Below the pieces are notes generated by a model. The model was not told the DNA's origin. It was given only the letters and a program-made list of their open reading frames with translations, and searched no databases. A program made the translations under genes and the position numbers. A DNA stretch of 22,873 nt from a virus, in UHGV virus genome UHGV-0188094. The stretch is one strand, 5' to 3'. Of the stretch, positions 215 to 19,099 are shown piece by piece; positions within the stretch are counted from its first letter, which is position 1, and each line of letters begins with the position of its first letter.

Positions 215-577
215 GGGGCTGATTCTGGATTCGACGGGATTTGCGAAACCCAAGGTGCATGCCGAGGGGCGGTTGGCCTCGTAAAAAGCCGCAAAAAATA
301 GTCGCAAACGACGAAAACTACGCTTTAGCAGCTTAATAACCTGCTTAGAGCCCTCTCTCCCTAGCCTCCGCTCTTAGGACGGGGATCAAGAGAGGTCAAA
401 CCCAAAAGAGATCGCGTGGAAGCCCTGCCTGGGGTTGAAGCGTTAAAACTTAATCAGGCTAGTTTGTTAGTGGCGTGTCCGTCCGCAGCTGGCAAGCGAA
501 TGTAAAGACTGACTAAGCATGTAGTACCGAGGATGTAGGAATTTCGGACGCGGGTTCAACTCCCGCCAGCTCCACCA
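215..577 (+). ncRNA. ssrA: tmRNA (SsrA), full length, 363 nt
   Basis: Starts GGGGCTGATTCTGGATTCGACGGG and ends ...CGCCAGCTCCACCA, the conserved tmRNA ends. The internal tag reading frame gcaaacgacgaaaactacgctttagcagcttaa encodes ANDENYALAA-stop, the enterobacterial SsrA degradation tag. Confidence 0.97.
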
Positions 578-700: not shown

Positions 701-1183
701 ATGGAAGAACTTCACTTTGTTTACATCAATGCAAATGGTCGTATCGGTGTTCACTCAATACAGAGCATCAGTTATAGCGAAAATCATATACAGGGCATTT
801 GTAAGAACACCGATCGAATAAAAACCTTCCGAAAAGACCGCATTCTTAAACAGTACGATTCACCAGAACAAGCCATTCAGGAATGCGCGTCATTCCTCCC
901 CGAAAACTACTCACATCTCACTAAGCAGTCTGGTCCGAAAAAAAATACATTCGATGTGTGTTTCACCGGATTTAAGAAAGCAGATAAAGAAAGATTGGTT
1001 GATAAGGCGAATGAACAAGGATTAACGGTAAGAGCCTCTGTAACCCAAAGCCTTCAGATGCTCTGTTGCGGTTACAATGCAGGCCCATCGAAAGTATCGG
1101 CAGCCAGGATGAAAGGCACAATCATCATAGATGAGCCTGGCTTTATACATTTTCTTGAAACGGGTGAGATCCCAGATGAATAA
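701..1183 (+). CDS. Hypothetical protein (160 aa); C-terminal half reads like a BRCT-type fold (tentative)
   Basis: ORF with RBS AGAGG about 6 nt upstream of the ATG. The C-terminal stretch FDVCFTGF...GLTVRASVTQSLQMLCCGYNAGPSKVSAARMKGTIIIDE resembles BRCT domains by eye only. Lies between attL and ogr. Confidence 0.5.
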   Translation: MEELHFVYINANGRIGVHSIQSISYSENHIQGICKNTDRIKTFRKDRILKQYDSPEQAIQECASFLPENYSHLTKQSGPKKNTFDVCFTGFKKADKERLVDKANEQGLTVRASVTQSLQMLCCGYNAGPSKVSAARMKGTIIIDEPGFIHFLETGEIPDE

Positions 1184-1496: not shown

Positions 1497-2597
1497 TTAT
1501 TCCATTTCAAGATCATCAATCCTCACTTCAAGCTCCAGACTGGTCGTAAAACCGTTATCCGGGCTGACGGTATGCGTCAGAGTCGTAATGGTCCATTCCG
1601 CATCATCTATCGGCTGTTTAAAACCACTGACTTTCACTGGCATTTCCGTGTAGAGATCTGCCCGACCTTCCGCCAGTTGTAGCGAGAATGACGCAACGCC
1701 GCGTTGCAGGCGTTCCCACTGCATTTTCGCTGCCCGTTCAGCGTTACTCCGATTAGCATAGGTGCGATTAAGTACCAGCACGTTTTCATCCGTACCCACC
1801 AGGTAATCGCCCTGCTTCGCTTCCGGCTCTTTCTTCTGCTTCTTAGTCCTGCGCTTACGCTTCACCGTAGTGCTTTCTTTCTTCGCGGGTTCGCGGGTAT
1901 GCAACCAGCTGGCAATTACGCCCGTGTAGGCTCCGCGATCTGCCAGGGTAAAGCGGTGGCTGTCGCCGTCCTTGCGTGTGATAGTGATCACTGGCAGAGG
2001 TTTACCGCTGGCGCTTTTGCCCTGTCCCTGCCGGATGAATAACAGATTGCCATTTTTCACCGACGCAATAGCACCGTACTGGCGCGCCAGCCGCATCAAA
2101 AAACTGCCGTCACTCTCATTGGTCTGGTCTATATGATCCACGGGCTTATCCGACAGATCTTTACCCAATGCCATCTTCAGTTTGTGCCGCGCAGCTATTT
2201 CCTTCACCACTTCCCCAACGGTGGTCTTGTGCCACGACTTTTCACGGCGGGTATTCAGCGTTTCCCGAAAATCAGCACTTCGCGCCCGGATAGTCAGTCG
2301 GTCCGGTGCGCCAGTGTGTTCAATCTCGTCCACCGTGAATGCCCCTTTCGGGAAAAGCGGCTGCCCCTTCCAGCCCAGCGCCAGCGTAATGACCGCACCA
2401 CGGCGCGGCAGCACTATTTTTCCATCGGCGTCGTCCAGCTCCAGATCAAGCTGGTCCGCTTCAAAGCCCCGGTTATCCGTCAGCGTCAGCCTCATCAGGC
2501 GGTTATCCAGCACAGTGGTGATATCCCTGCCCTCAATACTGATGCTGAATGCGGGAGTTTTGTTGCCTTTGTTAAGCAGTTCAGAGCTGAAATTCAC
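1497..2597 (-). CDS. P2 gpD-like tail protein (late gene D), 366 aa
   Basis: Full-length ORF directly upstream of ogr, as in P2 (D-ogr). GTG start overlaps the gpU stop (GTGA). The gpD identification is from recalled family resemblance plus synteny. Confidence 0.8.
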   Translation of the reverse strand: MNFSSELLNKGNKTPAFSISIEGRDITTVLDNRLMRLTLTDNRGFEADQLDLELDDADGKIVLPRRGAVITLALGWKGQPLFPKGAFTVDEIEHTGAPDRLTIRARSADFRETLNTRREKSWHKTTVGEVVKEIAARHKLKMALGKDLSDKPVDHIDQTNESDGSFLMRLARQYGAIASVKNGNLLFIRQGQGKSASGKPLPVITITRKDGDSHRFTLADRGAYTGVIASWLHTREPAKKESTTVKRKRRTKKQKKEPEAKQGDYLVGTDENVLVLNRTYANRSNAERAAKMQWERLQRGVASFSLQLAEGRADLYTEMPVKVSGFKQPIDDAEWTITTLTHTVSPDNGFTTSLELEVRIDDLEME

Positions 2598-3037
2598 GAC
2601 ATCAGCCCTCCCACCGTTTTACTGATATCGCTTAAGGCAGATGTTGCCGTTTCCTGCAGATTATTCAGTTGCGCACTGAGATCACCGAACATATCGGACA
2701 GGGATTCATCCACCCGTTTGAGCGACAGGGTGAACTCAATCCGGCGCGGCATACCGTCGCGGAAAAACTCCGTTTTAGTCTGATTCAGTCCCTCAATCAC
2801 ATACATGCCGTAAATCGTGCCGCTGCCTTCAATCAGAGGCCATGCTTTCCCCTGTTCTGCCATCTGCTCCAGTGCCAGCAACGACAGCCTGCCGCCTGTT
2901 ATCTCCGGCATAAGAACACCGGAAAGCGTCAGCATGTCGTTTTCCGGTCCCAGAAACTGCGTGGACGGACGTCGGTTTACCCGACTGTTTGCCGCATGTC
3001 GCCAGCTGCGTTGATACTGCAGTTGTCTTCCTGCCAG
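2594..3037 (-). pseudogene. P2 gpU-like tail protein, 5'-truncated by a deletion junction
   Basis: The frame reads ...QLQYQRSWRHAANSRVNRRPSTQFLGPENDMLTLSGVLMPEITGG... and continues upstream of the ATG at 2935 to a stop at 3050..3052. gpU-like sequence begins near 3025; upstream of that the sequence belongs to the gpN fragment in another frame. Confidence 0.6.
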
Positions 3038-3639
3038 TAGATGGACAGGTTATCCAGACGGGTGATCAGCAGCGCATTCGGCGGGAAGAACGGCGCACGC
3101 ACGGCCTGCAGGCCACCCATGCGTTTCTGGCTGATGATCATATCGGCAGCCAGTTTTTCACTGTTTTCCTGCTCTTTGTTGACCAGCGGGAAATACTTGT
3201 CAGACAACAGTTCACGACCGCAAATCACCACCAGACCGTCATCGTCCTGGTAAACCACGTCGATAAGCTCATTGACGGCATCCATCACCACAGCGTCCAG
3301 GTTGGCATATTCGCCACCTTTCCCGACTTTCACCGCACCCGGAGTGGTTTCACCGCCCGTGGTGGTGCTGCCCATGACGTGATCCGGTGCATCCTCACGG
3401 ATTTTCTGCAGCCAGCCTTTGTTCACATCCTGCAGCAGCGGGTTTTCGCTACGGTTGGAGGTTTTCGCACGCTTCACGCCGTTAAAGCCGATCATGATGC
3501 GGTCCAGTGCCTGACGTTTCACGATGGCGTCACGGATGCGCACCTGGAAATCCTGAAACTTCGCCCACAGATCCAGCTTCGCGTAGGTCAGCACCGTGTC
3601 AAAGTTGGTCTGCTCGCATTTATATTCCACATCGACCAT
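2977..3639 (-). pseudogene. P2 gpN-like major capsid protein fragment (internal portion only)
   Basis: Translation YKCEQTNFDTVLTYAKLDLWAKFQDFQVRIRDAIVKRQALDRIMIGFNGVKRAKTSNRSENPLLQDV...VGKGGEYANLDAVVMDA...ISQKRMGGLQAVRAPFFP...NLSIY matches the middle of P2 gpN. The N-terminal third or so is absent and the last 19 residues are read from gpU DNA in another frame. Confidence 0.7.
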
Positions 3640-4369: not shown

Positions 4370-6379
4370 TTACAAATATGTGTTGCTATGTAGAGATGTG
4401 TTTATTCCATCTTTTATCTCAATTTTTGACGAAGCATACTCATCATTCGCACTATCATCTATATCAAACTCATCTTGTAGATGAAGTGACTCATTTAACG
4501 GTTTATAAAACTCACCCATCATCATTTTGTAATGGGCAGTATGCTCACTACATTCAAATATCTTCTGAAAAACAATTAAATATTTTTGCACAGACTCCGT
4601 ATCTAAATTCATATAAAGATCATCACCTGCAAAATGGGAACCATCATTAATCCATGATACTAAAGATTTAAATATGATTTTTTCATCACCATAAAAATGA
4701 CACTCAAGCTTCCTAATATCCATCCCACCTAATATCTTAAAGTAATTCTCCAAAATCCTTCGCATTGTATTTTGTATAGTATTATTATTAATGTCTGTTC
4801 TTCTCAATTCGCACCAGAGCAAATCATAAGACGTTTTTATTGGGTTTGATTCGCACTTTTCAAGATATGAAACCTTCCCTTTTTTCCTTACAATCCAAAA
4901 AGTCTCCTCTTTCATTGCTTGATTACCGGATCTTTTGGTATTAAAAGTCAACTCTTTATGAAAATAAATATTATGAGTAAGGAATATAATTTGCTTAATA
5001 TTTCCTTCATCCTTACGAACATCCTCCATTAAATCTTTAATCAACGAACTTACAATAAACAGAATATCACTATCTAAACTTGAAATTGGATCATCAAATA
5101 CTACAACACGATCATCTAAAACACCTGATGCATTATCACTCCCTCTAACAAGGCTATAAAAGTACAAAAAAGTGATAAATGTCTTTTCTCCCTCACTAAG
5201 GGTTGTACGAGCATTATCTCCACTATCTCTCACTATCATATAATGCTTTTTATCTTCGGAGGGTTTTAAGTAAAAATTTTTGAAGCCATAAGAGTCCAGA
5301 ATCTTGTTAATTTTTGTAATAGTTGGAAGAGTACTGGTTTTATTAGACTCAATTGCCTCAATAGCCGAAGTATTTAACATTAACTTCTTTTTGTCTTCTT
5401 CTATCCCAGATTTAAGTCCTTGTAACGTCCTATTAAATTTATCAGATTTGCTACGGTAAGAAGTTATTTCAGACTTTAACTCCACCTTTACGATATATGC
5501 CCATATCTGCTTAGAAAGATTACTAGCCTCTACCTTTCTATTACTATGTATTTTGTTATTATTATCTATCAATAGATTTGAATCATTCAAAAAAGAAATA
5601 AAATCATCAACAACTTCACTTAAGTCACTAAAATGAACTGATTCACTTAAAAAATTGCGTTTATTTTTTGCCAATTCAAAATTCTTGTTTAATTCAGATA
5701 ATACTATCTTAGCCTTATCCTCAAACACTTCATAATTTATGAATGGAGATTTAATCGCCCTTATATCATCTATCGCCTTCAAGATATTATTAAGTTGATA
5801 TTCATATTGTAAAACCAATGCATCGATTTCTCTTTTTTTTAACTCATATGTTTTATCAAAATATGATGAAAGATTATCAAATATATTATCATTTACATCC
5901 TGCTGGCAGAATGGGCACTTGGGATTAGATTTATTGAAATATGTTAAACCCTCCTTAACCCAATCACTGTTATTGAGCATTGTAATTAAGTCTGAAACAC
6001 TAACGTCTTTTTTCCCTAGAATACGCTCACTCCAAATTTCCCTACTCAAAATATCATCTATCCCATTGAAGGATGGAATTGTAATTGATACATGTGATGT
6101 CAATTCAGTAGAAAAAACAATTTTTGCTTTCTCAATTAACTCTGCTATTGAGCAAACTTCTGATGTATTATTTTCATACTCAGCCAACACTCTGGCTTTA
6201 AATTTTTCACTACTATTCCTTAATCCCTCAAAAGCCTTTGAGAACACATTGTCATGTTTTACTTTTTGCTTCCAACATGAATCTTTAAAAGATTTTTCAT
6301 GGTCTTCGATTTTTTTAATAACGCCTAATTCATTATCACCACCATCTATTAACTTTTCCTTTGCTATAATAGATTCCAT
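4370..6379 (-). CDS. ABC-type (PrrC/RloC-like, AAA_13-like) ATPase, C-terminal 669-aa part: CPFC motif, coiled-coil insert, LSEGEK signature, Walker B/D-loop, H-loop, and a C-terminal putative effector domain
   Basis: CPFC at aa 155-158; K/E/N-rich predicted coiled coil at about aa 175-380; TLSEGEK (aa 393-399); VVVFDDPISSLD (aa 425-436); FLTHN (aa 466-470). The C-terminal roughly 200 aa contain R540-x3-E544 followed by His 561 and His 582. Very AT-rich compared with the flanking phage genes. Confidence 0.65.
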   Translation of the reverse strand: MESIIAKEKLIDGGDNELGVIKKIEDHEKSFKDSCWKQKVKHDNVFSKAFEGLRNSSEKFKARVLAEYENNTSEVCSIAELIEKAKIVFSTELTSHVSITIPSFNGIDDILSREIWSERILGKKDVSVSDLITMLNNSDWVKEGLTYFNKSNPKCPFCQQDVNDNIFDNLSSYFDKTYELKKREIDALVLQYEYQLNNILKAIDDIRAIKSPFINYEVFEDKAKIVLSELNKNFELAKNKRNFLSESVHFSDLSEVVDDFISFLNDSNLLIDNNNKIHSNRKVEASNLSKQIWAYIVKVELKSEITSYRSKSDKFNRTLQGLKSGIEEDKKKLMLNTSAIEAIESNKTSTLPTITKINKILDSYGFKNFYLKPSEDKKHYMIVRDSGDNARTTLSEGEKTFITFLYFYSLVRGSDNASGVLDDRVVVFDDPISSLDSDILFIVSSLIKDLMEDVRKDEGNIKQIIFLTHNIYFHKELTFNTKRSGNQAMKEETFWIVRKKGKVSYLEKCESNPIKTSYDLLWCELRRTDINNNTIQNTMRRILENYFKILGGMDIRKLECHFYGDEKIIFKSLVSWINDGSHFAGDDLYMNLDTESVQKYLIVFQKIFECSEHTAHYKMMMGEFYKPLNESLHLQDEFDIDDSANDEYASSKIEIKDGINTSLHSNTYL

Positions 6380-6705
6380 TAGCTTATTTTTTCTTCTTTA
6401 AGAGATATTAGTTTCTCTTCATCCTCCTTAAGATCGCTACCAAGGGTAAATACACCTTTAATTTTATCTTGACTAAAATTTCTTTCAACAAAATCTTTAT
6501 TATATACGTAGCTTATTAAAGATATATTATTTTTCCATTTAATCGGACATGTTGGATATTGTTCAGGGTCATTAATAATTTTACTTATAGTTGTTTTACC
6601 TGCACCATTAGCTCCATATAAATAGTTAAATTTAGAAAGTCCATGTAAAAGCTGCGTAGGGCCATTATATGAGCCTACCTTGTCAATAACTACCTCTTCA
6701 ATCAT
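6379..6705 (-). CDS. N-terminal Walker-A part (108 aa) of the same ABC-type ATPase, separated from the downstream ORF by a frameshift (TAATG overlap)
   Basis: P-loop YLYGANGAGKTT at aa 28-39; RBS GAGGA upstream of the ATG at 6705. The stop TAA shares its last A with the ATG of the 669-aa ORF. One extra A in the A6 run (6387..6392 on the plus strand) would fuse the two into a single ORF of about 778 aa. Confidence 0.6.
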   Translation of the reverse strand: MIEEVVIDKVGSYNGPTQLLHGLSKFNYLYGANGAGKTTISKIINDPEQYPTCPIKWKNNISLISYVYNKDFVERNFSQDKIKGVFTLGSDLKEDEEKLISLKEEKIS

Positions 6706-6840
6706 CCTCTAATCCTCAAAAAACAGATTAATCCTATCAAATCAATGATAATAGAAGACATTACTTACCTAATTACAAGGTGATCATTTATACAGCTGTA
6801 AATAAATCAGGCTAATCATCTATTTGTCATAACGCGCGCT

Positions 6841-6859
6841 CGTATCCCCGCCACGCCTG
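6841..6859 (-). other. cos-like site (186-type cohesive-end core), inverse orientation
   Basis: The reverse complement of 6846..6857 is GGCGTGGCGGGG, which equals the first 12 nt of the 186 cohesive end as I remember it (GGCGTGGCGGGGAAAGCAT). The downstream bases diverge. Confidence 0.45.
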
Positions 6860-6901
6860 CCCGCTTTATGTAGTGGTTTTCATGCACCTGCATGATCTAC
6901 G

Positions 6902-6926
6902 CAAAAGCCCGCCAGTTCTGGCGGGC
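6902..6926 (-). terminator. Rho-independent terminator for the leftward A / tum-like / DinI-like transcript
   Basis: On the minus strand: stem GCCCGCCAG ... CTGGCGGGC followed by TTTTG (plus-strand aaaagcccgccagttctggcgggc). Confidence 0.65.
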
Positions 6927-7061
6927 CTTAGCAAAAACGATCCTCAAACGATCATGCGATCTCATGCGGCATAGACATGCACTACAGAGCTAACGCCTCG
7001 CAAGGGCTCGTTGTTCAACCTTGCTGACGCCAGAAGCAAGTTCAGACGCCAGCAACGTTTC

Positions 7062-7295
7062 TTAATGCAGCCAGCTGTCGTCTTCCCACACCTTCTGCAT
7101 AATTTTCATCACTTGTTTTCTTTCTTCGTCCAGTTGCAGTCCGGTTAGTTCCACACCGTTAGAGCTACCTTTGCGAATGCGAATTACCGTTTTGGGATAC
7201 AGGGGGCGCAGATTGCGGTAAAGCTCGGATTCAAGGGCGTCCAGGGTAGACTGGCTAATCTTCTGCTCTTTATCGATCATTATTTCAATGCGCAT
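7062..7295 (-). CDS. DinI-family protein (77 aa), as in the SOS-induced Tum/DinI modules of 186-like phages
   Basis: MRIEIMIDKEQKISQSTLDALESELYRNLRPLYPKTVIRIRKGSSNGVELTGLQLDEERKQVMKIMQKVWEDDSWLH follows the DinI pattern (MRIE..., hydrophobic core, C-terminal W and acidic tail). RBS GAGGTG lies upstream of this internal Met. Confidence 0.75.
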   Translation of the reverse strand: MRIEIMIDKEQKISQSTLDALESELYRNLRPLYPKTVIRIRKGSSNGVELTGLQLDEERKQVMKIMQKVWEDDSWLH

Positions 7296-7305
7296 AAAAG
7301 TCACC

Positions 7306-7494
7306 TCAGCTGATGACATCCATTGAGTGGTTGTATTCGTGGGTTCTGATTTTTGCCATGAGTTCATCAGTCAATTCAGAAACCCACTGTAGAGCCAGCC
7401 CCTTCTCTTCATCACTACACTCACTAGCCGCTACAAGCTTAAGAAAAAAATCAATGCGCTGGAGCTTCAAAGACTCCAAAAAATAGTCCTGCAT
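7306..7494 (-). CDS. Small hypothetical protein (62 aa) immediately downstream of a LexA box; possible Tum-like antirepressor partner
   Basis: ORF starting MQDYFLESLKLQRID... with RBS GGAGG 6 nt upstream of the ATG at 7494. Position matches the SOS-regulated right-end operon of 186. Confidence 0.5.
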   Translation of the reverse strand: MQDYFLESLKLQRIDFFLKLVAASECSDEEKGLALQWVSELTDELMAKIRTHEYNHSMDVIS

Positions 7495-7535
7495 CTTTCC
7501 TCCTATGACACCACACGCAATACTGTATGTATAAC

Positions 7536-7555
7536 CACTGTTTATATTTACAGTA
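7536..7555 (-). promoter_or_regulatory. LexA (SOS) box overlapping the promoter of the tum-like / DinI-like operon
   Basis: CTGT-N8-ACAG with an AT-only spacer (cactgtttatatttacagta), about 45 bp upstream of the 62-aa ORF start. Confidence 0.6.
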
Positions 7556-7647
7556 TATAATAATCTTACTGATGTAAAACGTTTTTTTACATTCATCAGC
7601 CTGATATGCCTGGTATTATTAAGAGCACGAATTGTTAACCCGCGTAA

Positions 7648-10062
7648 TTAATACAGGTTCCGCCACTGATCATCTTCCTGCAAACGCTGGTTCCGATAGA
7701 AGATACGCAGGCCTGCTCCTGACGGAATACTGCCTCCGCGAAGGAGTAAATCGATCTCTTTCTCGCTGCCATCAAATCCTCTGGACTTCAGCTCATACAC
7801 GAGCTGCAGTCGCTGATGGTCTGTAATTCGCTGTTTGTAGTCTTTACGCCGTTTCGGTTTCACCAGGCGTAACCTTGCTGCCAGTTCCCGGCGCTCTTTT
7901 TTGCTCATACTGTGCAGGTAATCGTGCAACTCCTTGTCATCCATGCTGGTAATGTCCGTTCTGGGGTCCCCATCAGCTGATTTATCTTTCTCCTGTTGGT
8001 TCAAATTTTCAGCAAGGGGACAGTTATTGCCACGAGTCCAAGGGGCGCAAGCGCCCTGGTCGGCTGCCGCCTCCTGAACGTCAACGGCCTTACGAACCAT
8101 TTTCCACTTCACTGCATGAGTGCAGATCTTGCCCTCTGCAATGGGTGACCAGATGCCATAAATACGAATGCCGTGATCGCCATAGGCGGTCGGCTCTTCG
8201 TTGATTTCATAAGCGGTTCTGATCAGGTGATATTTGCGGGGAACCAGTACGCCGCCCTGCTTCATGATGTAGGTGGCAAAACAACCAGCATCAGCAGCAG
8301 CCAGGATTGCATCAAGGCGCGGGTTATCCAGTACCGGCGCACCTGCTTTTTTGTCCCCCTGTTGCCTTGCCGCCTGACCAGCCAGCAATCGCAGTTCACG
8401 GTAAGCCTGACGCCCCGGAATGCCAAAGAAGCGGAATTGCTGAACACGATGCAGAGACGCCCAGGCATTAACGTATTCAGCATTATCACGCAGGGATTTC
8501 CCCGTTTCCTTGCTGATCTCGCCAGCCAGACCACGCCCGTCAATGTTCTTACTGATGTATTTCGCGATGTAGCTTGTTGGCGTACCTTTGCGCGGGTTAA
8601 TCAACTCAGACTTAAAGCGCGGCCCAGTGTTATTGCCCAGCTCCTCGCGGTCTTCACGGATGGCAAACTTACGCAGTAATACAGTGATGGCGCGGCGGTC
8701 TTTTTTGCGCATAAAACACAACAGGTGCCAGTGAACTGTACCGTCATGATGCGGCTCAGCCACCCGCACGCCATACCAGCGCAATCCGGCTTTGTGCATC
8801 GCCTTACGAAATGCAGCAAACATGCCGACCAGGTAATCACTACTTTGTCTTACCGTCGCATTTGTCCAGGTTGGGTTGGGCCTGCCGTTATTTAGCGTGG
8901 AATGGAAACGTGACGGACAGGTGATGGTGTAGAAAACGGCACAGTCACTGCGCATTTCAGCGATAAGCTCCAGACCTTTAACACAGGCCATCATCTCATT
9001 GCGGCGATGCGCCGGGTTGCTGCTGCTGGCGTTTACCACATCTTCCATATCCAGCGTGTCACCGTCTTCGTTCACCAGTTCATGAGAACGGAAAAACTCC
9101 AGCGACTTACGGCGCTGCTCACGTTTATGCATCACGGCTTCATAGCTGACATAGGGAGATGCTTTTTTGCTGACCAGACAGACAGCACGCAACTGCTCTT
9201 CCCGCCATTCGCAACGCATCTTCCATAATTTCCTATACCACCAGTCGGCGCACAGCATACGCGCCAGCGAACCCGGAATGAGTTCATAGGGCACGGGTTT
9301 ACGGCGGTTTCTTTTCCGACGGAGTTGCTCAAACGCAGGCGGGATGACATCCAGTCGCAGGGTTTCTGCTGCCACCTTTTCCCATGTCTTGCGGATTTCT
9401 TCTGGCTTAACATCATCGGTGGCGTACAAATCACCACAAGCGGCATCAAGACACATGCTCATATGCGCAGCGACAAGAGTAGACAGGCGTTTCACCTGAT
9501 CCTGACTCATTTCAGGCAGGATCAGCAGGCCGTCCAGCCCTTCATGGCTTGCCATAAAGCGAAAAGAAGTGGATAGCTGACTCTCGCGTACATGCTCCAG
9601 TCGTTCCAGACATGGCTTAATCGTCTCACGCAAATAGCGGGAATAAGCCTTTGGCCTGCCCAGGCTGCTGAAGTATTCGATACGTTGCATCAGCGGCTTG
9701 CTGATGTGGGTGGGCTGGGCGCTGACATCTGCCAGAATGACCATGTCTGGGTTAAAACGCTGCTGCTCATGCGCCAGCTTTGCCCGACTAATGAGCTTAT
9801 CCTGCTCCATTTCGCGCTGGACAGGATCACGGGATTCATTAAAGAAATAACGCTCCCAGACCTGATCACTCAGTGCCTCACGGCGCAGCAGTTCCTGCTC
9901 GTTATCGGCAGCGTACAGAGTGATCAGGTTTGAAAGCGCAGAAACCGGCGCAACTTCCGCCGGGTCCAGATAAGGGTTAATGGCCTTTTTCGGGCTGTTC
10001 CATGAGAACGATGCGGAAGCCTCGTTAAAGCCGCAGCAGTTGTTCATATCGGCATGGTTCAT
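7648..10062 (-). CDS. P2/186 gpA-type replication initiation protein (rolling-circle endonuclease), 804 aa
   Basis: Large ORF in the position of gene A downstream of the lysogeny-switch genes. Identification is from recalled family resemblance and synteny. Its ATG overlaps the stop of the upstream Dam-like gene (ATGA). Confidence 0.8.
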
Positions 10063-11018
10063 GCACGTACTCCGTACACGGCAGAACTATCCACGCCACG
10101 CGAATAATCAAATCCCACCCAGCAGCGCGGCCCGGAAACAGCGATGATTTCTGTTGCAGATTTACTCTCACCAGCTGCTACGCCGATGCTGCGTTTTGCC
10201 TTGATGTAGTGGTGAGTAAAATTGCGATACAGCGAACGGATCAGGGATGTGTCACTGTTAGAAATAATGACCGGATGTCCTTCTGATGACCGATGTTCAA
10301 GAACGGATGCCAGGTGATACTGGTCATCTTCAGTGAAGCCGTCAGTGTGATAACCGGAAAACGTGCCGTCATACGGCGGATCGCAATACACCACATCCCC
10401 CGCCTTCAACATCGCCAGCGTTTCATCAAAGCTGGCGCAGATAAACGTTGCCCGCTGGGCTTTTTCTGCAAATGCGCGAATTTCTTTTTCAGGAAAATAC
10501 GGATTTTTATAATTACCGTAGGGAATGTTGAAATGCCCGCTCTTGTTATAGCGACATAAACCACGGTAACCGTGACGATTGAGATACAGGAAATATACCG
10601 CTTTCATGAAATCAGTAATTTCAGTTGAGTAATTAAACTCCTGCCTTATGTTGTAATAAGCCACCTCCCTGTTTGCTTCCTCAAATAAAGCTCTGGCGCG
10701 AGATATAAACGATTCACAATCAGCAGCAACCTTTTTATAGAGGTTGATTAAATCAGGATTAATATCCGCAACAAGATAGCTGGGGTAGTGGATCTCCTGC
10801 GCTTCGTTCTGGATTGCTTCAGCGGTCACACGCAGCAGTTCTGCCGCTTCGACGTGGTTTAGCTGGCGGGATGTGATATGACACGCAAGACTATCAAGGC
10901 GGGCAGCCATTGCTTCAGCCCTTGCCCGGCGTTCTTCCAGACGAGCCTCTGTCAGTAAAATATTAAGCCCTGCGTCATCCGGTCCGATTTTAGTCGTGAG
11001 GGTTTCAATATTACGCAT
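10059..11018 (-). CDS. Dam-like N6-adenine DNA methyltransferase homolog with a replaced N-terminus that lacks the AdoMet-binding motif I
   Basis: The region [15 protein letters not shown]...[36 protein letters not shown]...[17 protein letters not shown]...PVIISNSD aligns to E. coli Dam from about residue 50 onward, including the DPPY catalytic motif. The first roughly 85 aa are Ala/Glu-rich helical sequence with no FxGxG or W-GGK motif. Start taken at the ATG at 11018 (RBS AGGAGA). Confidence 0.7.
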
Positions 11019-11085
11019 AATCAATTCTCCTGAATTTAGATAAAGGGATGCCCGGCGGGTTTACGCCATTAATTTCATTAGCTGG

Positions 11086-12383: not shown

Positions 12384-12499
12384 AGTGCAGTATCTCTTAG
12401 TTTGGTTTCGTTTTATCTTGTTTTATGTGGTTTGGTTTTGCTTTTCAAACCATAAATGGATATTAGGATCACTTTTTATATACGTCAAGAGGTTTGATT
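12384..12499. promoter_or_regulatory. Divergent promoter/operator region of the lysis-lysogeny switch (pR/pL analog)
   Basis: 116-bp intergenic region between the divergent apl and cI genes, with iterated ggttt/gttttg motifs. Individual promoter hexamers were not resolved. Confidence 0.5.
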
Positions 12500-13132
12500 A
12501 TGAGTTTAATAAAGGCGGGAAATGATAGTGGTGGGCGCGATGCAATTAACAGGCTTATTAAGGCTTACAACTTCAGCTCACGACAGCAGCTCTGCGAACA
12601 TCTGGAAGTATCAAAAAGCACTATGGCTAACAGATACTTAAGGGATAGCTTTCCTGCCGAATGGGTAATTCAATGTGCCCTTGAAACAGGAGCTTCCCTT
12701 CTATGGCTGGCTACTGGTCAAGGAGATATGTATGCGTGTGAGAACGAAGAAACAAATCTCAAAAATGAACCTCCTGTCACTGTAAGACCACTTTCTAAGA
12801 TCGTTGCTCCTAGCATCAAACGTGTTGAACTGAAGAACGGCGAACTGCAGCCAAGTGATGAAATTCTTCTTGATAGCAGCCTGCTCGATGGTGACTCATC
12901 CAACGCTTTATTTGTTAAAACAGCTAATAATAGCTTTGTAGTGGATACGTCCGTTAAACAAGTCAGTAATGGCTTCTGGTTAGTCGATATGGACGGAGTT
13001 AAAAGCATCGTTAAAATTGCGCGCATACCCGGAAACAAAATAGTAGTTAACCAAGATGACACTTCATTTGAATGTTCTGTAGATGATGTGGAAGTCGTAG
13101 GACGTGCAGTCAAAGTAATCAAGAACCTCTAA
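12500..13132 (+). CDS. cI: CI-type immunity repressor, two-domain (186 CI-like), about 210 aa
   Basis: N-terminal HTH (SSRQQLCEHLEVSKSTMANRYL...) resembling P2 C and 186 CI, plus a C-terminal domain. ATG at 12500 is preferred over the TTG at 12494 because of the RBS AAGAGG 7 nt upstream. Co-oriented with and just upstream of int. Confidence 0.7.
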   Translation: MSLIKAGNDSGGRDAINRLIKAYNFSSRQQLCEHLEVSKSTMANRYLRDSFPAEWVIQCALETGASLLWLATGQGDMYACENEETNLKNEPPVTVRPLSKIVAPSIKRVELKNGELQPSDEILLDSSLLDGDSSNALFVKTANNSFVVDTSVKQVSNGFWLVDMDGVKSIVKIARIPGNKIVVNQDDTSFECSVDDVEVVGRAVKVIKNL

Positions 13133-13135
13133 CTT

Positions 13136-14155
13136 ATGACCATCAGAAAACAGCCGAACGGAAAATGGTTGTGTGAGTGCTATCCCAATGGACGCAATGG
13201 TAAGCGCGTGCGTAAGCAATTTGCTACCAAAGGCGAAGCCATTGCGTTTGAAAGCTTCACAATGGAAGAAGTGAACAAAAAACCGTGGTTAGGAGAAAAG
13301 GATGATCGGCGACACCTATCAGAATTAATTGAGCTTTGGTATTCCCTGTATGGTCAGACACTCGCAGACCCCAAGCGCCTCATGGCGAAACTTAGAATTA
13401 TCTGTAATGGTCTAGGCGACCCCATCGCCTCAGAACTGACAGCCGGTGACTTTACGAAATACCGCGAAGCACGGTTAAAAGGTGAAGTACGAAATGAAGA
13501 TGGGACGCTTATGTCGCCCGTTAAGCCCCGCACGGTAAACCTCGAACAGCGCAATCTATCATCGGTGTTCGGTACATTAAAAAAACTAGGACACTGGTCA
13601 GCACCAAACCCGCTGGCAGGACTTCCAACCTTCAAAATTGCCGAAGGTGAGCTGGCTTTTCTTTCCATGGACGAAATCAAGCGCCTGTTGGCTGCATGTG
13701 CTGAATCTCAAAGCCCCAGCTTATTAATGATTGCCAAAATATGTTTGGCTACCGGCGCACGTTGGAGCGAAGCCGAAAACCTGCATGGCCACCAAATATC
13801 GAAATACCGAATTACTTATATAAAGACAAAAGGTAAGAAAAACAGAACAGTACCGATATCACAGGAACTATATGACGAACTCCCCAAGCACAGAGGGAAG
13901 TTATTCACGCCATGCAGAAAAGCCTTTGAGCGTGCAGTAAAGCGGGCCGGTATTGAACTTCCGGAGGGGCAATGCACCCATGTATTACGTCATACATTCG
14001 CCAGCCATTTTATGATGAACGGCGGAAACATACTGGTACTACGCGATATTCTGGGCCATGTGGATATAAAAATGACGATGATTTATGCCCACTTTTCCCC
14101 TGACCACCTAGAAGATGCGGTAACAAAAAACCCACTGTTTAATTTAAAATGGTAA
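13136..14155 (+). CDS. int: P2/186-type tyrosine integrase (339 aa)
   Basis: N-terminus ...GRNGKRVRKQF..KGEA.AFE... and C-terminal motifs ...ATGARWSEA..., ...HVLRHTFASHF..., ...GHVDIKMTMIYAHF parallel P2 Int (R, H-x-x-R, catalytic Y). Confidence 0.85.
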   Translation: MTIRKQPNGKWLCECYPNGRNGKRVRKQFATKGEAIAFESFTMEEVNKKPWLGEKDDRRHLSELIELWYSLYGQTLADPKRLMAKLRIICNGLGDPIASELTAGDFTKYREARLKGEVRNEDGTLMSPVKPRTVNLEQRNLSSVFGTLKKLGHWSAPNPLAGLPTFKIAEGELAFLSMDEIKRLLAACAESQSPSLLMIAKICLATGARWSEAENLHGHQISKYRITYIKTKGKKNRTVPISQELYDELPKHRGKLFTPCRKAFERAVKRAGIELPEGQCTHVLRHTFASHFMMNGGNILVLRDILGHVDIKMTMIYAHFSPDHLEDAVTKNPLFNLKW

Positions 14156-15690
14156 ATTTAACGATGAAAAGATTGAAATCAGTTTCCGATGCAGTTATCC
14201 AACTCAGATTAAATGCGGTAAAAGCAAGTATTCAAAGCGTCAATCCAAACGAGTTTATAACACATTGCCTTGATTATAACCTCCAGAAATTTAACAATCA
14301 GCTTGAAATGTTACAACACCTACCATGGGTTGTGAATTTATGCATTAAATGGTCCGCCAGTGCGCTGGGTAAAAAACGGAAATTTAAACATATTGACAGA
14401 CCTGGTGCTGTCAGGTTGCTACAACGAGCATATGAGGAACTAAGTATAATTCCAACTGGTCTGGAAAATATAGACAAAGGGATTAACTTTTTCCTTAGAA
14501 ATACGTTATATCAACAAGGTATTTATCAAAGATTAGATGCTTTAAATACAATTAGCAGACAAGTTTTCTTGTTTTCTTCCTTAGATGACAACAATAGAAT
14601 CAAGCGTAGATTCAAAGAACTTACTGATGTTGATATAAACGATTTTCTAAAACTATCATTTGTGTTAGTATCACTCGTTACCTTACAAGCACCAGTAAAG
14701 AAAATAACAATAGATTCTTTCGCAGCTCTTTACTCCGTAATACCTAAAGATACAATCGAGAAATTTCTGAATACTATATCTATCCCTTACGAAGAACTAG
14801 CTCGGTTTTGCTGTACAAAAGATAATGAGACACCTTTAGTAGAATATTATGCTCCATCGCCTTTCTTAGAAAAACCTTTCATCAAATTCGAAGGAAATTA
14901 TCACCAAATACATACGCAGCTAACTTCGACCAGTATACAAACCTTTATATATGATTTGCTTCGCAGAGATGATGCAGAATCGTTCATGGACAAATTTGGG
15001 CGAGTTTTCGAAAATGCAGTCAACCAGCTATTAGATGAAAGTGGAATTGCTTATATTGCTGAAGGAAATTTAAAAGAATATCTACCTCAAGAGAATAAAG
15101 TTGTAGATTTTCTACTACCTCATGATGAAGCTAACATTTTCATCGATGCTAAAGGTGTTGAGATAAACCAAAAGGGAATGGTTACACTACGACCAGGGGA
15201 TATTTCTGCCAATATAAAAAGCTCCGTATTAAAAACTATAGAACAAGCACACTCAGTAAATAGAGAGCTAATTAAAAAAGGTAACCAAAATTTTTCTTTT
15301 AAAAAAGAGTCCTACATTTTATGTCTTACTTATAAAAATTTATTCCTTGGAAATGGTACATTTCTAAATAAATCCTATGCTAACATCGAAATGAAAAAAA
15401 TCCGAGATAGGCATTCAGAAGAATATCAAATACCTGATGAGAACATTTTCTGCATATCATTTGAGGAATTCGAGTATCTGCTATCTTCTTGCAAGGAATA
15501 CTCAAAACCTGTACATGAGGTACTGCGAGAAGCTGTAGTTAGAAACCAAACACCATCAAGTGCAGTTTTCCTTTTTGCACATCATATCCGTGACTCATTC
15601 CCCAAAATACGTTCATCTGAGATCGTCAGGCTCGCAGGCTTGAGCGAGATCAACCATATCGTTGAACGATTAGAGCAAGCTGGCTCTTGA
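14149..15690 (+). CDS. Cargo protein (513 aa) with a central PD-(D/E)xK-like nuclease motif; function unknown, candidate defense or abortive-infection factor
   Basis: AT-rich ORF whose ATG overlaps the last codons of int. Candidate motif E305 ... VVD320FLLP ... IFID333AK335 (about 15046..15170). No family recognised by eye. Confidence 0.55.
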   Translation: MVNLTMKRLKSVSDAVIQLRLNAVKASIQSVNPNEFITHCLDYNLQKFNNQLEMLQHLPWVVNLCIKWSASALGKKRKFKHIDRPGAVRLLQRAYEELSIIPTGLENIDKGINFFLRNTLYQQGIYQRLDALNTISRQVFLFSSLDDNNRIKRRFKELTDVDINDFLKLSFVLVSLVTLQAPVKKITIDSFAALYSVIPKDTIEKFLNTISIPYEELARFCCTKDNETPLVEYYAPSPFLEKPFIKFEGNYHQIHTQLTSTSIQTFIYDLLRRDDAESFMDKFGRVFENAVNQLLDESGIAYIAEGNLKEYLPQENKVVDFLLPHDEANIFIDAKGVEINQKGMVTLRPGDISANIKSSVLKTIEQAHSVNRELIKKGNQNFSFKKESYILCLTYKNLFLGNGTFLNKSYANIEMKKIRDRHSEEYQIPDENIFCISFEEFEYLLSSCKEYSKPVHEVLREAVVRNQTPSSAVFLFAHHIRDSFPKIRSSEIVRLAGLSEINHIVERLEQAGS

Positions 15691-15819
15691 TTGCACAATT
15701 GCAAATTGGCGACAAATTGGCGGCAGAGCATTAAAAATGCGTAAAATAAACAAACACCAAATAATACTAATATGCTGTTTTAAAACATAAATATATGTTT
15801 TTATCATAATAATAATGGT

Positions 15820-15868
15820 ATGTAGGAATTTCGGACGCGGGTTCAACTCCCGCCAGCTCCACCAAATA
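15820..15868. repeat. attR of the P2/186-type prophage and attL of the downstream island: second copy of the 49-bp ssrA 3' end
   Basis: Identical to 533..581. Confidence 0.85.
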
Positions 15869-15898
15869 TTGATGTACTGAAGTTCAGTAAAGTCTACT

Positions 15899-15933
15899 AA
15901 GCCCGCACAGCACAAGCTCTGCGGGCTTTTTTA
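15899..15933 (+). terminator. Rho-independent terminator after the second ssrA 3'-end copy
   Basis: Stem gcccgcacag...ctctgcgggc followed by TTTTTT (15927..15932). Confidence 0.6.
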
Positions 15934-16030
15934 CGTCTATTGTAGTCTAGTGAGAATTGCTGAGAACTACGAGTTATGGCACCCTGAATGGGACCCACGA
16001 AGATGGGTCCTAAAATCGAGGGTCCCAAAC

Positions 16031-17260
16031 ATGGCCAAAATCGCTAAGAAGCTCACTGACACTGAAATCAAAAGCACCAAACCTGCCGAAAAAGAGGTTA
16101 ACCTTTTTGACGGCGATGGTTTGCTGTTGCGAATCGCTCCCCTGGCGAAGGGAGGGAAGAAAAATTGGTATTTCAGATATGCAGTGCCTGTGACCAAAAA
16201 GCGAACTAAGGTGAGCTTAGGAACCTATCCTCACCTTACACTTGCGAAGGCACGAGCTTTACGTGATGAATACTTGTCGTTGCTTACAAATGGTATAGAC
16301 CCCCAAGTTCATAACAACCAAAAAGCCAATGCACTGAAAGATGCCACGGAACATACATTTCAAGCAGTAGCCAAGAAGTGGCTTGATGAGAAAGTCAAAA
16401 CGTCAGGCATCTCCCAAGATCATGCTAACGACATCTGGCGAAGCCTAGAGAGAAATATCTTTTCCACATTGGGTGATACCCCAATTAAGGAGATTCGCCC
16501 TAAAATGCTTAAACAGCATTTAGAACCCATAGAAAAACGAGGTGTCCTTGAAACACTTCGCCGCATCATATCCCGCCTGAATGAAATTTTCCGCTATGCA
16601 GCAACAGAAGAACTCATAGAATTCAACCCGGCAGACAACCTGGGGCAACGGTTCAGCAAGCCAAAAAAACAGAATATGCCAGCATTACCCCCTTCCGAAC
16701 TCCCTCGCTTCTTGGTTGCTCTAAACAATGCTTCTATCCGTTTGGAAACAAGGCTACTGATTGAGTGGCAACTTCTCACATGGGTTCGCCCAGGTGAAGC
16801 TGTTCGCACAAGATGGTCAGATATTGATATTGAAACTGGCATGTGGAACATCCCGGCGGAGTTTATGAAAATGAAGAAGCCTCACAAAGTTCCACTGAGC
16901 AAAGAAGCTTTGCGAGTTTTGGATTTAATGAAAGTCATCAGCGGGCATAGAGAGTGGGTGTTCCCCAGTATCAAAGCTCCACTCAATCACATGCATGAAC
17001 AAACAGCTAATGCGGCCATAATCCGTATGGGTTTCGGAGGTGAGCTTGTAGCTCACGGTATGCGATCCATTGCTAGAACGGCTGCTGAGGAGTCTGGCAA
17101 GTTTAGGACTGATGTCTTAGAAGCCGCCCTTGCCCACTCGAAGAAAGATGAAATAATTGCAGCCTACAATCGTGCAGAGTATCTCACTGAACGGGTGGTT
17201 CTCATGCAATGGTGGAGTGACTATGTTTCGTCTCAAAAATGCAAAGTTATTGCCGCATAA
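16031..17260 (+). CDS. P4-family tyrosine integrase (IntA/SlpA-like)
   Basis: MAKIAKKLTDTEIKSTKPAEKEVNLFDGDGL..., ...DIWRSLERNIF..., ...VPLSKEALRVLD..., ...HGMRSIARTA..., ...AYNRAEYLTERVVLMQWW are P4-integrase hallmarks. Start taken at the ATG at 16031; the ORF track's upstream GTG at 15950 would run into the terminator. Confidence 0.85.
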   Translation: MAKIAKKLTDTEIKSTKPAEKEVNLFDGDGLLLRIAPLAKGGKKNWYFRYAVPVTKKRTKVSLGTYPHLTLAKARALRDEYLSLLTNGIDPQVHNNQKANALKDATEHTFQAVAKKWLDEKVKTSGISQDHANDIWRSLERNIFSTLGDTPIKEIRPKMLKQHLEPIEKRGVLETLRRIISRLNEIFRYAATEELIEFNPADNLGQRFSKPKKQNMPALPPSELPRFLVALNNASIRLETRLLIEWQLLTWVRPGEAVRTRWSDIDIETGMWNIPAEFMKMKKPHKVPLSKEALRVLDLMKVISGHREWVFPSIKAPLNHMHEQTANAAIIRMGFGGELVAHGMRSIARTAAEESGKFRTDVLEAALAHSKKDEIIAAYNRAEYLTERVVLMQWWSDYVSSQKCKVIAA

Positions 17261-17323
17261 CTCTCCCATGATGGATTAACTATCTTGATTTAGTTAAAGA
17301 ATTAATAATCACACCATTAACCT

Positions 17324-17372
17324 ATGTGGACTAAGCATAGCCATTTACAAATGGGGACATTGAGTCCACATA
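17324..17372. repeat. Composite 49-bp palindrome upstream of the serine recombinase gene (candidate recombination or operator site)
   Basis: Outer arms tatgtggact / agtccacata and inner arms ccattt / aaatgg, placed symmetrically around a central AC dinucleotide (17348..17349). Confidence 0.5.
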
Positions 17373-17542
17373 ACGAAAGCTGTCGGTCATATCAGCTAAA
17401 TAATTCACATCTCTTCTCGATTATCATACACCTCGAAGATCTACCAAATTCGCTCTAATCAATGATAAAACAGTTGAATTCGGTTGAAATTTGATCAATT
17501 TTATCCACTACATTGTATTGAATCATCCATGAGGTTTCGTGC

Positions 17543-19099
17543 ATGGCTAGCGAAAATGACAAAAATCATAGAGTTAGGGTCGCGCAGTACTTGAGGATGT
17601 CTACCGACCATCAGCAATATTCTTTACATAATCAGTCCGAATATATCAAAGATTATGCTGAAAAGAACAATATGGAAATCGCTTATACCTACGATGATGC
17701 AGGTAAGAGCGGAGTCAGTATCGTAGGCAGGCATTCTTTGCAGCAGTTACTTAGCGATGTAGAACAAAAGAAAATAGATATACAGGCTGTATTATTTTAT
17801 GATGTGAGCCGTTTTGGTCGTTTTCAAAATAGTGATGAAGCGGCATATTATTCCTTTCTATTTGAGAGAAATGGTGTAGATCTTATATATTGTTCCGAAC
17901 CTATACCCACTAAAGATTTCCCTTTAGAGTCCTCTGTTATACTGAATATAAAAAGATCTAGTGCTGCATATCACAGCAGGAATCTATCTGAAAAGGTATT
18001 TATAGGGCAAGTAAATTTAATAAAGCTTGGTTATCATCAAGGCGGTATGGCTGGTTATGGGCTGAGACGTCTTTTAGTAGACGAAAATGGCATAGCTAAA
18101 GAAATATTGAGTTTCCGCAAAAGAAAGAGTATTCAAACAGATAGGGTAATATTAATTCCGGGACCAAAAAATGAAATAAAAATTGTAAATAGAATATATG
18201 ATCTCTTTATAGATAATAACGTCCCAGAATTCATTATTGCTGAGAGATTAAATGAACAGAACATACCTGCAGAAAATGGAACATTATGGACTCGTGCAAA
18301 AATACATCAAATTTTGACAAATGAAAAATATATTGGAAACAACATATATAACAAAACCTCATCTAAATTAAAAAGTAGGCTTGTAAAAAACCCCAAACAT
18401 GAATGGGTTAGATGTGACAAGGCATATAAACCTATTATTTCAAAGAAAAAATACAATAAAGCTCAAGAAATAATTCAGCTCCGATCCATTCATTTGACTA
18501 ATGAAGATCTATTAGAAAAACTAAAACAAAAATTAGAATCTAATGGAAAACTATCAGGCTTTATCATTGATGAAGATGATACAGGCCCTTCATCTTCTGT
18601 TTATAGAACCCGATTTGGTGGTCTTTTAAGAGCATATACTTTGATTGGTTATAAGCCAGAACATGATTACAGCTATCTCAAAATAAATGAAGCACTAAGA
18701 TCATTTTACTCAGAGATAATTGAGGATTTTAAGGGTGAAATTTTAAAAAGTAACTGTCATATAGACGAGTATAAATATGCCCCAATGCTTTACATCAATG
18801 ATGAGTTTTTAATTTCCGTCCTTGTTACTAAATGCATACATATGAAATCAGGTAAACTTAGATGGAAAGTCCGGTTTGATAACTCACAGAAAGCAGACAT
18901 AACAATTGTTATACGAATGAATTCACAAAATATTTCACCTCTTGATTTTTATATCATACCAAAGATTGAAAACGAATATAATAAAATGTGCATGACGGAA
19001 ACAAACAACATTCGATTAGATCTCTATAGATTTGATAATCTTGATAAACTTCTACAAATTATTACTCGCATGAAAGTGAGGGAACTATATGCTGCCTGA
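17543..19099 (+). CDS. Large serine recombinase (518 aa)
   Basis: N-terminal resolvase catalytic domain (VAQYLRMSTDHQ with the catalytic Ser; ...DDAGKSG...; ...FYDVSRFGRF...) followed by a recombinase-type domain (GYGLRRLL...). RBS GAGG 8 nt upstream. Confidence 0.8.
   Translation: MASENDKNHRVRVAQYLRMSTDHQQYSLHNQSEYIKDYAEKNNMEIAYTYDDAGKSGVSIVGRHSLQQLLSDVEQKKIDIQAVLFYDVSRFGRFQNSDEAAYYSFLFERNGVDLIYCSEPIPTKDFPLESSVILNIKRSSAAYHSRNLSEKVFIGQVNLIKLGYHQGGMAGYGLRRLLVDENGIAKEILSFRKRKSIQTDRVILIPGPKNEIKIVNRIYDLFIDNNVPEFIIAERLNEQNIPAENGTLWTRAKIHQILTNEKYIGNNIYNKTSSKLKSRLVKNPKHEWVRCDKAYKPIISKKKYNKAQEIIQLRSIHLTNEDLLEKLKQKLESNGKLSGFIIDEDDTGPSSSVYRTRFGGLLRAYTLIGYKPEHDYSYLKINEALRSFYSEIIEDFKGEILKSNCHIDEYKYAPMLYINDEFLISVLVTKCIHMKSGKLRWKVRFDNSQKADITIVIRMNSQNISPLDFYIIPKIENEYNKMCMTETNNIRLDLYRFDNLDKLLQIITRMKVRELYAA

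Follow-up and report, generated by a model that had tools for sequence, protein, structure and literature searches.

The switch by which prophages of the P2/186 family respond to DNA damage is already known. Among the work cited in Lemire et al. 2011 (PMC3121763), biochemistry on the binding of the repressor CI, with block of its operator binding, concerns the Tum of coliphage 186 only. For the Salmonella phages Fels-2 and PSP3, that paper describes a tum divided by a stop codon into two genes and, in PSP3, assigns the antirepressor to the upstream one. In the Phollow study the tum gene (ECHS_RS04495) of DuoHS, a prophage of E. coli HS, was deleted in frame, and this deletion and a non-cleavable lexA(Ind-) allele each abolished mitomycin C-induced lysis and virion foci (PMC12055606). 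Here we describe the corresponding module in the virus genome UHGV-0188094, a stretch of 22,873 nucleotides (nt), hereafter the window, that holds a decayed Fels-2-like (P2/186-family) prophage remnant. An initial annotation, made from the sequence alone, had reported a LexA box followed by an open reading frame (ORF) of 62 amino acids (aa) and a DinI-family gene. All three were found, within 7062..7555, on the minus strand, as are all features of the module.

With high confidence, we read the module as the SOS operon of a Fels-2-like prophage, that is, the equivalent of p95-tum of 186 in the split tumA/tumB form of PSP3, Fels-2 and DuoHS. The anatomy, the homologies and the conservation that carry this reading come from the present analysis, and the dependence of induction on LexA cleavage and on tum comes from the work of others on near-identical modules. 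As a switch the module is real but ordinary. What is added here is the exact start of the gene, a second LexA box of the colicin type, a formal link to the Tum of 186, the dispensability of DinI, and the poor annotation of a gene with a published function.

A split tum gene and its DinI-like partner

The gene for the 62-aa protein, a tum of the tumA type, is located at 7306..7494 on the minus strand with its ATG at 7494, and was assigned as the putative antirepressor of a 186-type CI by homology to the Tum proteins of DuoHS and Fels-2. The protein is identical to DuoHS Tum at 60 of 62 residues, and 96.8% identical to STM2728 of Fels-2. The likeness extends to the DNA: a stretch of 620 nt is shared with DuoHS at 97% identity, and in it the -35 hexamer, both LexA boxes and the ribosome binding site (RBS) are the same. 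The primers used for the deletion in DuoHS join ATAGGAGGAAAGATG to TGAGGTGACTTTTATGCGCATTG (PMC12055606). Both primer halves were found in the window, once each and as exact matches, one at the start of the ORF (7492..7506) and the other at its stop (7286..7308), and the design of this deletion spares the RBS and the start of the DinI-like gene. Judged by this near-identity, the 62-aa protein is the Tum antirepressor, the function published for its homologue of 97% identity. The earlier suggestion that it acts on the CI-like repressor agrees with that function.

In databases, members of the 62-aa family are labelled "hypothetical protein" (RefSeq) or "unknown function" (PHROGs, phrog_698), and are at times mislabelled as "levan regulatory protein". 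Many gene calls stretch them to 84–101 aa, through their own LexA operator. A 96-aa version of the ORF in the window (7306..7596, start at 7596) was rejected, as the extension spans the promoter and the operator and is not conserved in homologues, and the internal ATG has a strong RBS. Pfam holds no family for the 62-aa protein. Its AlphaFold model is a two-helix hairpin (helices 2–23 and 28–61) with a mean predicted local distance difference test score (pLDDT) of 86, and a Foldseek search of this model against the PDB returned generic helical hairpins only, all with E values of at least 1.

The family is connected to the N-terminal half of 186 Tum at the profile level. A profile built from 32 diverse members aligns to residues 6–48 of 186 Tum (hmmsearch, 34.6 bits), and hhalign of the 62-aa family against the 186 Tum N-terminal family gave a probability of 96.7% (E 3.4e-10, columns 4–44 against 4–44). 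Furthermore, the PHROG families 698, 8554 and 1993 cross-match, and a motif is common to both families, (L/I)-x-R-(I/V)-x-(L/M)-x-x-(R/K)-L-x-A-x-x-x-C-x-x-x-(D/E)-(K/R)-x-(L/I)-A-(L/I)-x-(W/L)-(I/V)-(A/S)-E-(L/I). Many relatives of the 186 Tum N-terminus are themselves stand-alone proteins of 63–78 aa, some of them named "Tum protein". Because of these, the fused 146-aa Tum of 186 is the less common form and the exception. The initial annotation had compared the locus with the LexA-regulated Tum arrangement of 186; the LexA-controlled equivalent is indeed present, but the exact match is to the split tumA/tumB form and not to the fused protein.

The second gene of the module, the DinI-like tumB, occupies 7062..7295 (minus strand), encodes 77 aa and has an RBS of its own, GAGGTG. 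It starts 10 nt past the TGA of tum, so that the antirepressor and the DinI-like parts are two ORFs and not one 146-aa polypeptide. The earlier identification of this gene as DinI-like was confirmed by the Pfam family DinI (PF06183; E 6.6e-23, 81.3 bits against a cut-off of 24.2, profile positions 1–63 of 63) and by a match to the structure of E. coli DinI (PDB 1GHH; E 2.7e-06 over residues 1–75), and the protein was assigned to phrog_189. A BLASTP comparison showed 41% identity to residues 71–145 of 186 Tum (E 3e-24). The start of the gene coincides with that of the 77-aa product annotated as made from an internal start in 186 tum, which is described in GenBank as "modulates SOS induction". 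At the sequence level, the DinI-like gene thus corresponds to the C-terminal half of 186 Tum. According to references cited in PMC3121763, E. coli DinI binds RecA filaments and modulates their co-protease activity. The DinI-like protein would most likely modulate RecA-filament activity, and hence the strength or the duration of the SOS signal.

Promoter, operator and conservation of the module

Gene A, the replication gene, lies directly upstream of the module (7648..10062, minus strand, 804 aa; Pfam Phage_GPA, E 2.5e-126). Past its end at 7648, a spacer of 153 nt reads ...TTTACA-17 nt-TACTGTAAATATAAACAGTGGTTATACATACAGTA...AGGAGGaaagATG. Reading of the sequence, together with related loci anchored on the LexA box, places the putative -35 hexamer of the tum promoter (the p95 equivalent), TTTACA, at 7573..7578. 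The -10 region (7550..7557) is either TACTGT at 7550..7555, with a 17-nt spacer, or TATACT at 7552..7557, with a 15-nt spacer, and either of the two overlaps LexA box 1. Between gene A and the -35 there is a hairpin, but a weak one (z-score -1.5), and no terminator is claimed there. The RBS of tum, AGGAGG (7499..7504), is kept in most related loci.

LexA box 1, the distal one, is TACTGTAAATATAAACAGTG at 7536..7555 and agrees with the consensus at 17 of its 20 positions. It contains the near-consensus CTGT-N8-ACAG that had been noted upstream of the two co-directional genes; this pattern occurs once in the 22.9-kb window (7538..7553). LexA box 2, the proximal one, is CAGTGGTTATACATACAGTA at 7521..7540, offset by 15 nt from box 1 and sharing 5 nt with it. 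The two are the best and the second-best LexA-like sites of the window on both strands, with scores resembling the heterology index (HI) of 4.3–4.6 for box 1 and 8.1 for box 2, compared with 4.9 for recA on the same matrix and 11.4 for the next best site in the window. The matrix was built anew from a set of E. coli SOS boxes and does not reproduce published HI values exactly, so that only the ranks are trustworthy.

A scan of one genome per species yielded 38 loci encoding relatives of the 62-aa protein, in Escherichia, Citrobacter, Enterobacter, Klebsiella, Pantoea, Erwinia, Tatumella, Brenneria, Serratia and others. An exact CTGT-N8-ACAG was present at most 100 nt upstream in 29 of these. 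When any LexA-like site equal in quality to bona fide boxes was counted, 35 of the 38 had one in the same place and register, compared with none of 688 background windows of 140 nt from the same loci. A second box at +15 was found in half of the loci (19/38). In an alignment anchored on the box, nearly all 38 loci have TTTACA at a distance of exactly 17 nt upstream of TACTGT. The phages 186, PSP3 and ESSI-2 also retain a LexA box at the same place, a single one in each, despite diverged flanking DNA.

The neighbouring genes are conserved to different degrees. The gene directly upstream of the tum-like gene is gpA in 34 of the 38 loci, and the gene directly downstream is DinI-like in 20. In the other 18, as well as in Cronobacter phage ESSI-2 (1501..1656), the tum-like gene and its LexA box occur without any DinI gene. 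From these counts, the conserved core of the module is gene A, a LexA-controlled promoter and the small gene, with DinI as a frequent accessory that is dispensable in about half of the relatives.

The module was detected in 1125 of 5426 complete E. coli genomes (~21%). The main value of the analysis is one of annotation: a "hypothetical" 62-aa gene is the induction switch of a prophage family carried by roughly a fifth of complete E. coli genomes, as well as by many members of Klebsiella, Salmonella and other genera of the Enterobacterales. Once tum is recognised, SOS-responsive P2-like prophages and their remnants can be predicted.

The double operator has close counterparts outside phages. 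An 81-nt query across both boxes matched about 750 small Col-type plasmids at query positions 25–67, about 40 nt upstream of colicin-like and cloacin-like genes. Aligned with the dual SOS boxes of colicin and cloacin genes, the double box is nearly identical to them in both sequence and register, and box 2 falls on the proximal box. Those operators likewise have two 20-bp LexA boxes in the same register (TACTGTA-AT--AAACAGTGGTTATA--TACAGTA). They control plasmid toxin and lysis genes, however, and not an antirepressor, and the boxes of a colicin promoter follow just downstream of its canonical -10, whereas box 1 of the window overlaps the -10. Box 2 of Fels-2 is exactly the colicin proximal box; that of the window differs from it at two central positions. 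Colicin dual operators have been reported to bind two LexA dimers, giving very tight repression and expression in few cells (PMC2994835). By analogy, two LexA dimers probably occupy the double operator of the window as well, and such an operator would suggest tight, late, all-or-none firing.

Proposed mechanism and competing explanations

In an undamaged cell, LexA would sit on the two overlapping SOS boxes (7521..7555) and cover the -10 region and the transcription start. Upon DNA damage, RecA* would drive the self-cleavage of LexA, the promoter would open and a short bicistronic mRNA would be made. The 62-aa Tum, a predicted helical hairpin, would then bind CI, which would lose its operators, and the early lytic promoter would be derepressed. 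The presumed target is the 212-aa CI repressor encoded at 12494..13132 on the plus strand, assigned to the 186 type by Pfam Phage_CI_repr and Phage_CI_C. It is 92% identical to the CI of Fels-2, 98% to that of Klebsiella phage Kp4865-2 and 32% to that of 186. Given this type and the closeness to Fels-2 CI, the Tum-CI pair of the window is, by sequence, the Fels-2 pair. The 77-aa DinI homologue would act as an accessory partner that most likely tunes RecA-filament activity, and transcription would most likely stop at a terminator at 6900..6930.

In the remnant, the switch would at most derepress the early genes (apl/cox, cII, fil, dam and A) and promote excision or in-situ replication; it cannot yield phage because virion and lysis genes have been lost. 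That the remnant still responds to DNA damage, as had been proposed, is a reasonable supposition from its intact parts, and it probably still derepresses early genes after damage without making phage. We infer the occupancy by two LexA dimers, the direct contact between Tum and CI for this pair of alleles, the role of DinI and the effects in the remnant.

Several points weigh against the module being a working SOS operon of this kind. In pairwise BLASTP the 62-aa protein shows no similarity to the N-terminus of 186 Tum or to PSP3 TumA, only profiles connect it to these two proteins, and the match of the family profile to PSP3 TumA is marginal (3.9 bits). The HI-like matrix is home-made, which makes its absolute scores unreliable. 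The -10 is non-canonical, and a consensus promoter scanner made no call at the tum promoter. LexA binding, the transcription start and SOS inducibility are for this sequence predicted properties. As for the DinI-like gene, no change in induction could be measured when dinI was removed from Gifsy prophages by non-polar deletion (Lemire et al. 2011, PMC3121763). Finally, given the decay of the prophage, the switch may have no phenotypic output.

The last point can be taken further, in that the module could be a silent relic without functional output, with a dead promoter, a Tum mismatched to CI, or nothing useful downstream of CI. Decay of the element is evident: deletions have joined what is left of gpU (2594..2935) and of the capsid gene gpN (2977..3639), both of them fragments, all portal, terminase, tail and lysis genes are missing, the ATPase gene of the cargo region is frameshifted, and DUF2732 and Dam are fused. 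The decay has nevertheless spared the parts on which the switch would depend. Both ORFs of the module are intact and 97–100% identical to the ORFs of functional phages, and the promoter and operator are base-for-base identical to those of the inducible DuoHS. In addition, CI, Apl/Cox, CII, A and Int are all full length, and the early region matches a complete Klebsiella phage at 95.7% identity, with 98% of the length covered. We consider a silent relic unlikely.

Another explanation is that the main present role of the SOS promoter is to drive the cargo gene, a candidate anti-phage defence gene, by read-through. The initial annotation had likewise supposed that the SOS response could raise the expression of neighbouring cargo. 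There is precedent for this in related phages. The p95 transcript of 186 continues into orf97 through a terminator that is only partial (GenBank annotation), and in Fels-2 the next gene, STM2726, starts 59 nt past dinI with no obvious terminator. In Fels-2-carrying Salmonella, STM2727 was up 5.5-, 11.1- and 14.8-fold with rising dose of the mutagen MX, and STM2726-STM2727-STM2728 was scored as one MX-responsive operon (PMC2225428). By position and numbering, we take STM2727 to be the DinI-like gene of Fels-2. The cargo gene of the window (4370..6705, minus strand; PADLOC PDC-S06, Pfam AAA_13 ATPase) is co-directional with the module, and a promoter scanner found no consensus promoter between 6706 and 6900. 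Distant matches of the ATPase are to PrrC and LmuB.

The layout of the window nevertheless differs from these precedents, as dinI and the cargo gene are 356 nt apart and two RNA structures stand between them. Directly past the dinI stop is a strong hairpin without a U-tract (7017..7059, minus strand), seen in an RNA fold of 6880..7075, a segment that as a whole has a z-score of -2.96. It is followed at 6900..6930 (minus strand) by a canonical intrinsic terminator with an 11-bp GC-rich stem, a 4-nt loop and then UUUUGCG, present in both the minimum free energy and the centroid structure and missed by a simple terminator scanner. In this folding model, 6900..6930 is the likely 3' end of the SOS operon. 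A search of Rfam found no RNA family in 6600..7700. Furthermore, the cargo gene is split into ORFs of 108 and 669 aa by a 1-nt deletion in an A-run (6387..6392), in contrast to the intact 778-aa allele of E. coli TUM12355 (8154–10490 of its locus). This frameshift could reflect a pseudogene, a sequencing error or a slippery run. Some read-through into the cargo may occur, but as the main role of the promoter it has little probability, and the expected effect on cargo was the weakest part of the initial annotation.

It could also be argued that the DinI-like protein is what inactivates CI, the 62-aa ORF being a leader or an unrelated small gene. Databases label the full-length 186 Tum as "DinI" and leave the 62-aa family without a function, and similarity to Tum is easily detected in the DinI half only. 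This is, however, hard to reconcile with the abolition of DuoHS induction by an in-frame deletion of the 62-aa ORF alone, in which the RBS and start of dinI remain intact, or with the antirepressor activity carried by the upstream gene of PSP3. The 18 related loci and ESSI-2 that have the small gene and its LexA box with no DinI gene, and the annotation of the 77-aa internal-start product of 186 as a modulator only, also argue against it, and we regard it as highly improbable.

That the LexA box is merely a chance AT-rich palindrome in an intergenic region, as one might suspect from the fact that a single CTGT-N8-ACAG arose in 21 of 100 shuffles of the window and is alone not rare, is effectively refuted by the conservation of its position and register across related loci, by the two adjacent top-ranked sites exactly at the promoter, by its retention in 186, PSP3 and ESSI-2, and by the block that lexA(Ind-) imposes on induction of the near-identical DuoHS.

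The remnant and comparison with related prophages

The remnant is integrated at ssrA (transfer-messenger RNA, 215..577). It has kept gpD intact (1497..2597), and the gene order after the gpN fragment is the cargo gene, DinI, Tum, A, a DUF2732-Dam fusion, DUF5347, a Fil-like gene, CII, an Apl/Cox-like gene (80 aa), CI and a P2-type Int (13136..14155). The module had initially been placed at the prophage's right end. This is correct on the cos-delimited phage map only; once integrated, the element has the module in its interior, flanked by gene A and the cargo hotspot. A comparable remnant is present in E. coli TUM12355.

Further observations concern the surroundings of the module. The DUF2732-Dam fusion is a single 321-aa ORF (10059..11024, minus strand) that holds a DUF2732 domain and a D12 Dam methylase lacking about the first 40 profile positions. 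It probably arose by a deletion, since DUF2732 and Dam are separate genes in DuoHS and Fels-2 with a DksA-like zinc-finger gene in between. Overlapping the stop of int is a 513-aa ORF (14149..15690, plus strand) for which Pfam and PADLOC searches gave no match. It is followed, within 14149..20878 (plus strand), by a second island, which carries two ParB-like genes besides an integrase (15950..17260) and a recombinase (17543..19099). The same arrangement is found in TUM12355, and tandem islands appear to share the ssrA site. Between ssrA and the ogr/D end of the prophage lies a 160-aa ORF (701..1183, plus strand) with no Pfam family, whose sole match is a weak and partial one to the PADLOC candidate PDC-S48 (E 2e-07, C-terminal 70 residues).

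Tum proteins of at least 97% identity accompany rather different CI alleles, which are 40% (DuoHS), 57–62% (Cartapus and Klebsiella phages) or 92–98% (Fels-2 and Kp4865-2) identical to the CI of the window. Within the N-terminal domain of these alleles one segment is invariant, SKST.A.R..RDSFPA(E/D)W(V/I)IQCALETG (RDSFPAEWVIQCALETG). The CI of 186 differs in this segment, and the N-terminus of 186 Tum is likewise very different. This pattern suggests the segment as a candidate contact surface for Tum, and that Tum may act across immunity types. That one Tum allele is a promiscuous, trans-acting antirepressor of CI repressors of differing immunity is a tentative speculation, which we think more doubtful than probable. 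If the segment is the contact surface, the tum of the remnant could, on SOS induction, activate co-resident or incoming Fels-2-like prophages of other immunity. Such an action would resemble the cross-talk described for the Gifsy antirepressors, and would explain why the module has stayed intact amid the decay of the prophage.

Among the systems with which the module can be compared are the dinI-antirepressor (gfoA/gftA) operons of Gifsy-1, -2 and -3, and AntC of N15. They too have a small, LexA-repressed antirepressor directed against a non-cleavable repressor. In the Gifsy prophages the antirepressor is also linked to a dinI homologue and has a terminator-like palindrome ahead of it. Unlike in the window, dinI comes first, the phages are lambdoid and the repressors belong to other families. 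The likeness noted is one of organisation.

Within the P2/186 family, the order of gene A, module and cargo hotspot or portal is the same in vB_EcoM-813R9, 186, Fels-2, PSP3 and DuoHS. In 186, p95-tum follows gene A as in the window, the LexA box overlaps a TACTGT -10, the target is a CI of the same type, and a separate 77-aa DinI-like product is made from an internal start. The p95 annotation in GenBank gives a -35 of TTCACA, an 18-nt spacer, a -10 of TACTGT and a LexA site starting at the -10. Unlike the window, 186 has one fused 146-aa ORF, a single LexA box, an N-terminal Tum half beyond the reach of BLASTP and a CI of only 32% identity. PSP3 is closer in its gene structure, with a tumA of about 60 aa and a 77-aa DinI-like tumB behind a LexA box, after gene A. 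Its GenBank record describes tumA (60 aa) as "similar to 5' end of 186 tum; UV induction" and tumB as DinI-like. PSP3 differs in having a TumA of the 186-like subfamily phrog_1993, with marginal similarity to the 62-aa protein, and a single LexA box.

The closest counterparts are Fels-2 and DuoHS. Fels-2 has the same promoter with dual LexA boxes, the same split into STM2728 and STM2727, and is induced by damage. Unlike the window, it is a complete prophage, and its cargo STM2726 is close behind dinI and appears co-induced. In DuoHS the module also follows gene A, and the promoter, boxes, RBS and both genes, including the DinI-like neighbour ECHS_RS04500, are those covered by the 97% DNA identity. 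DuoHS is, however, a complete inducible phage and not a remnant, its CI is only 40% identical to that of the window, and a different downstream cargo follows dinI without the two hairpins.

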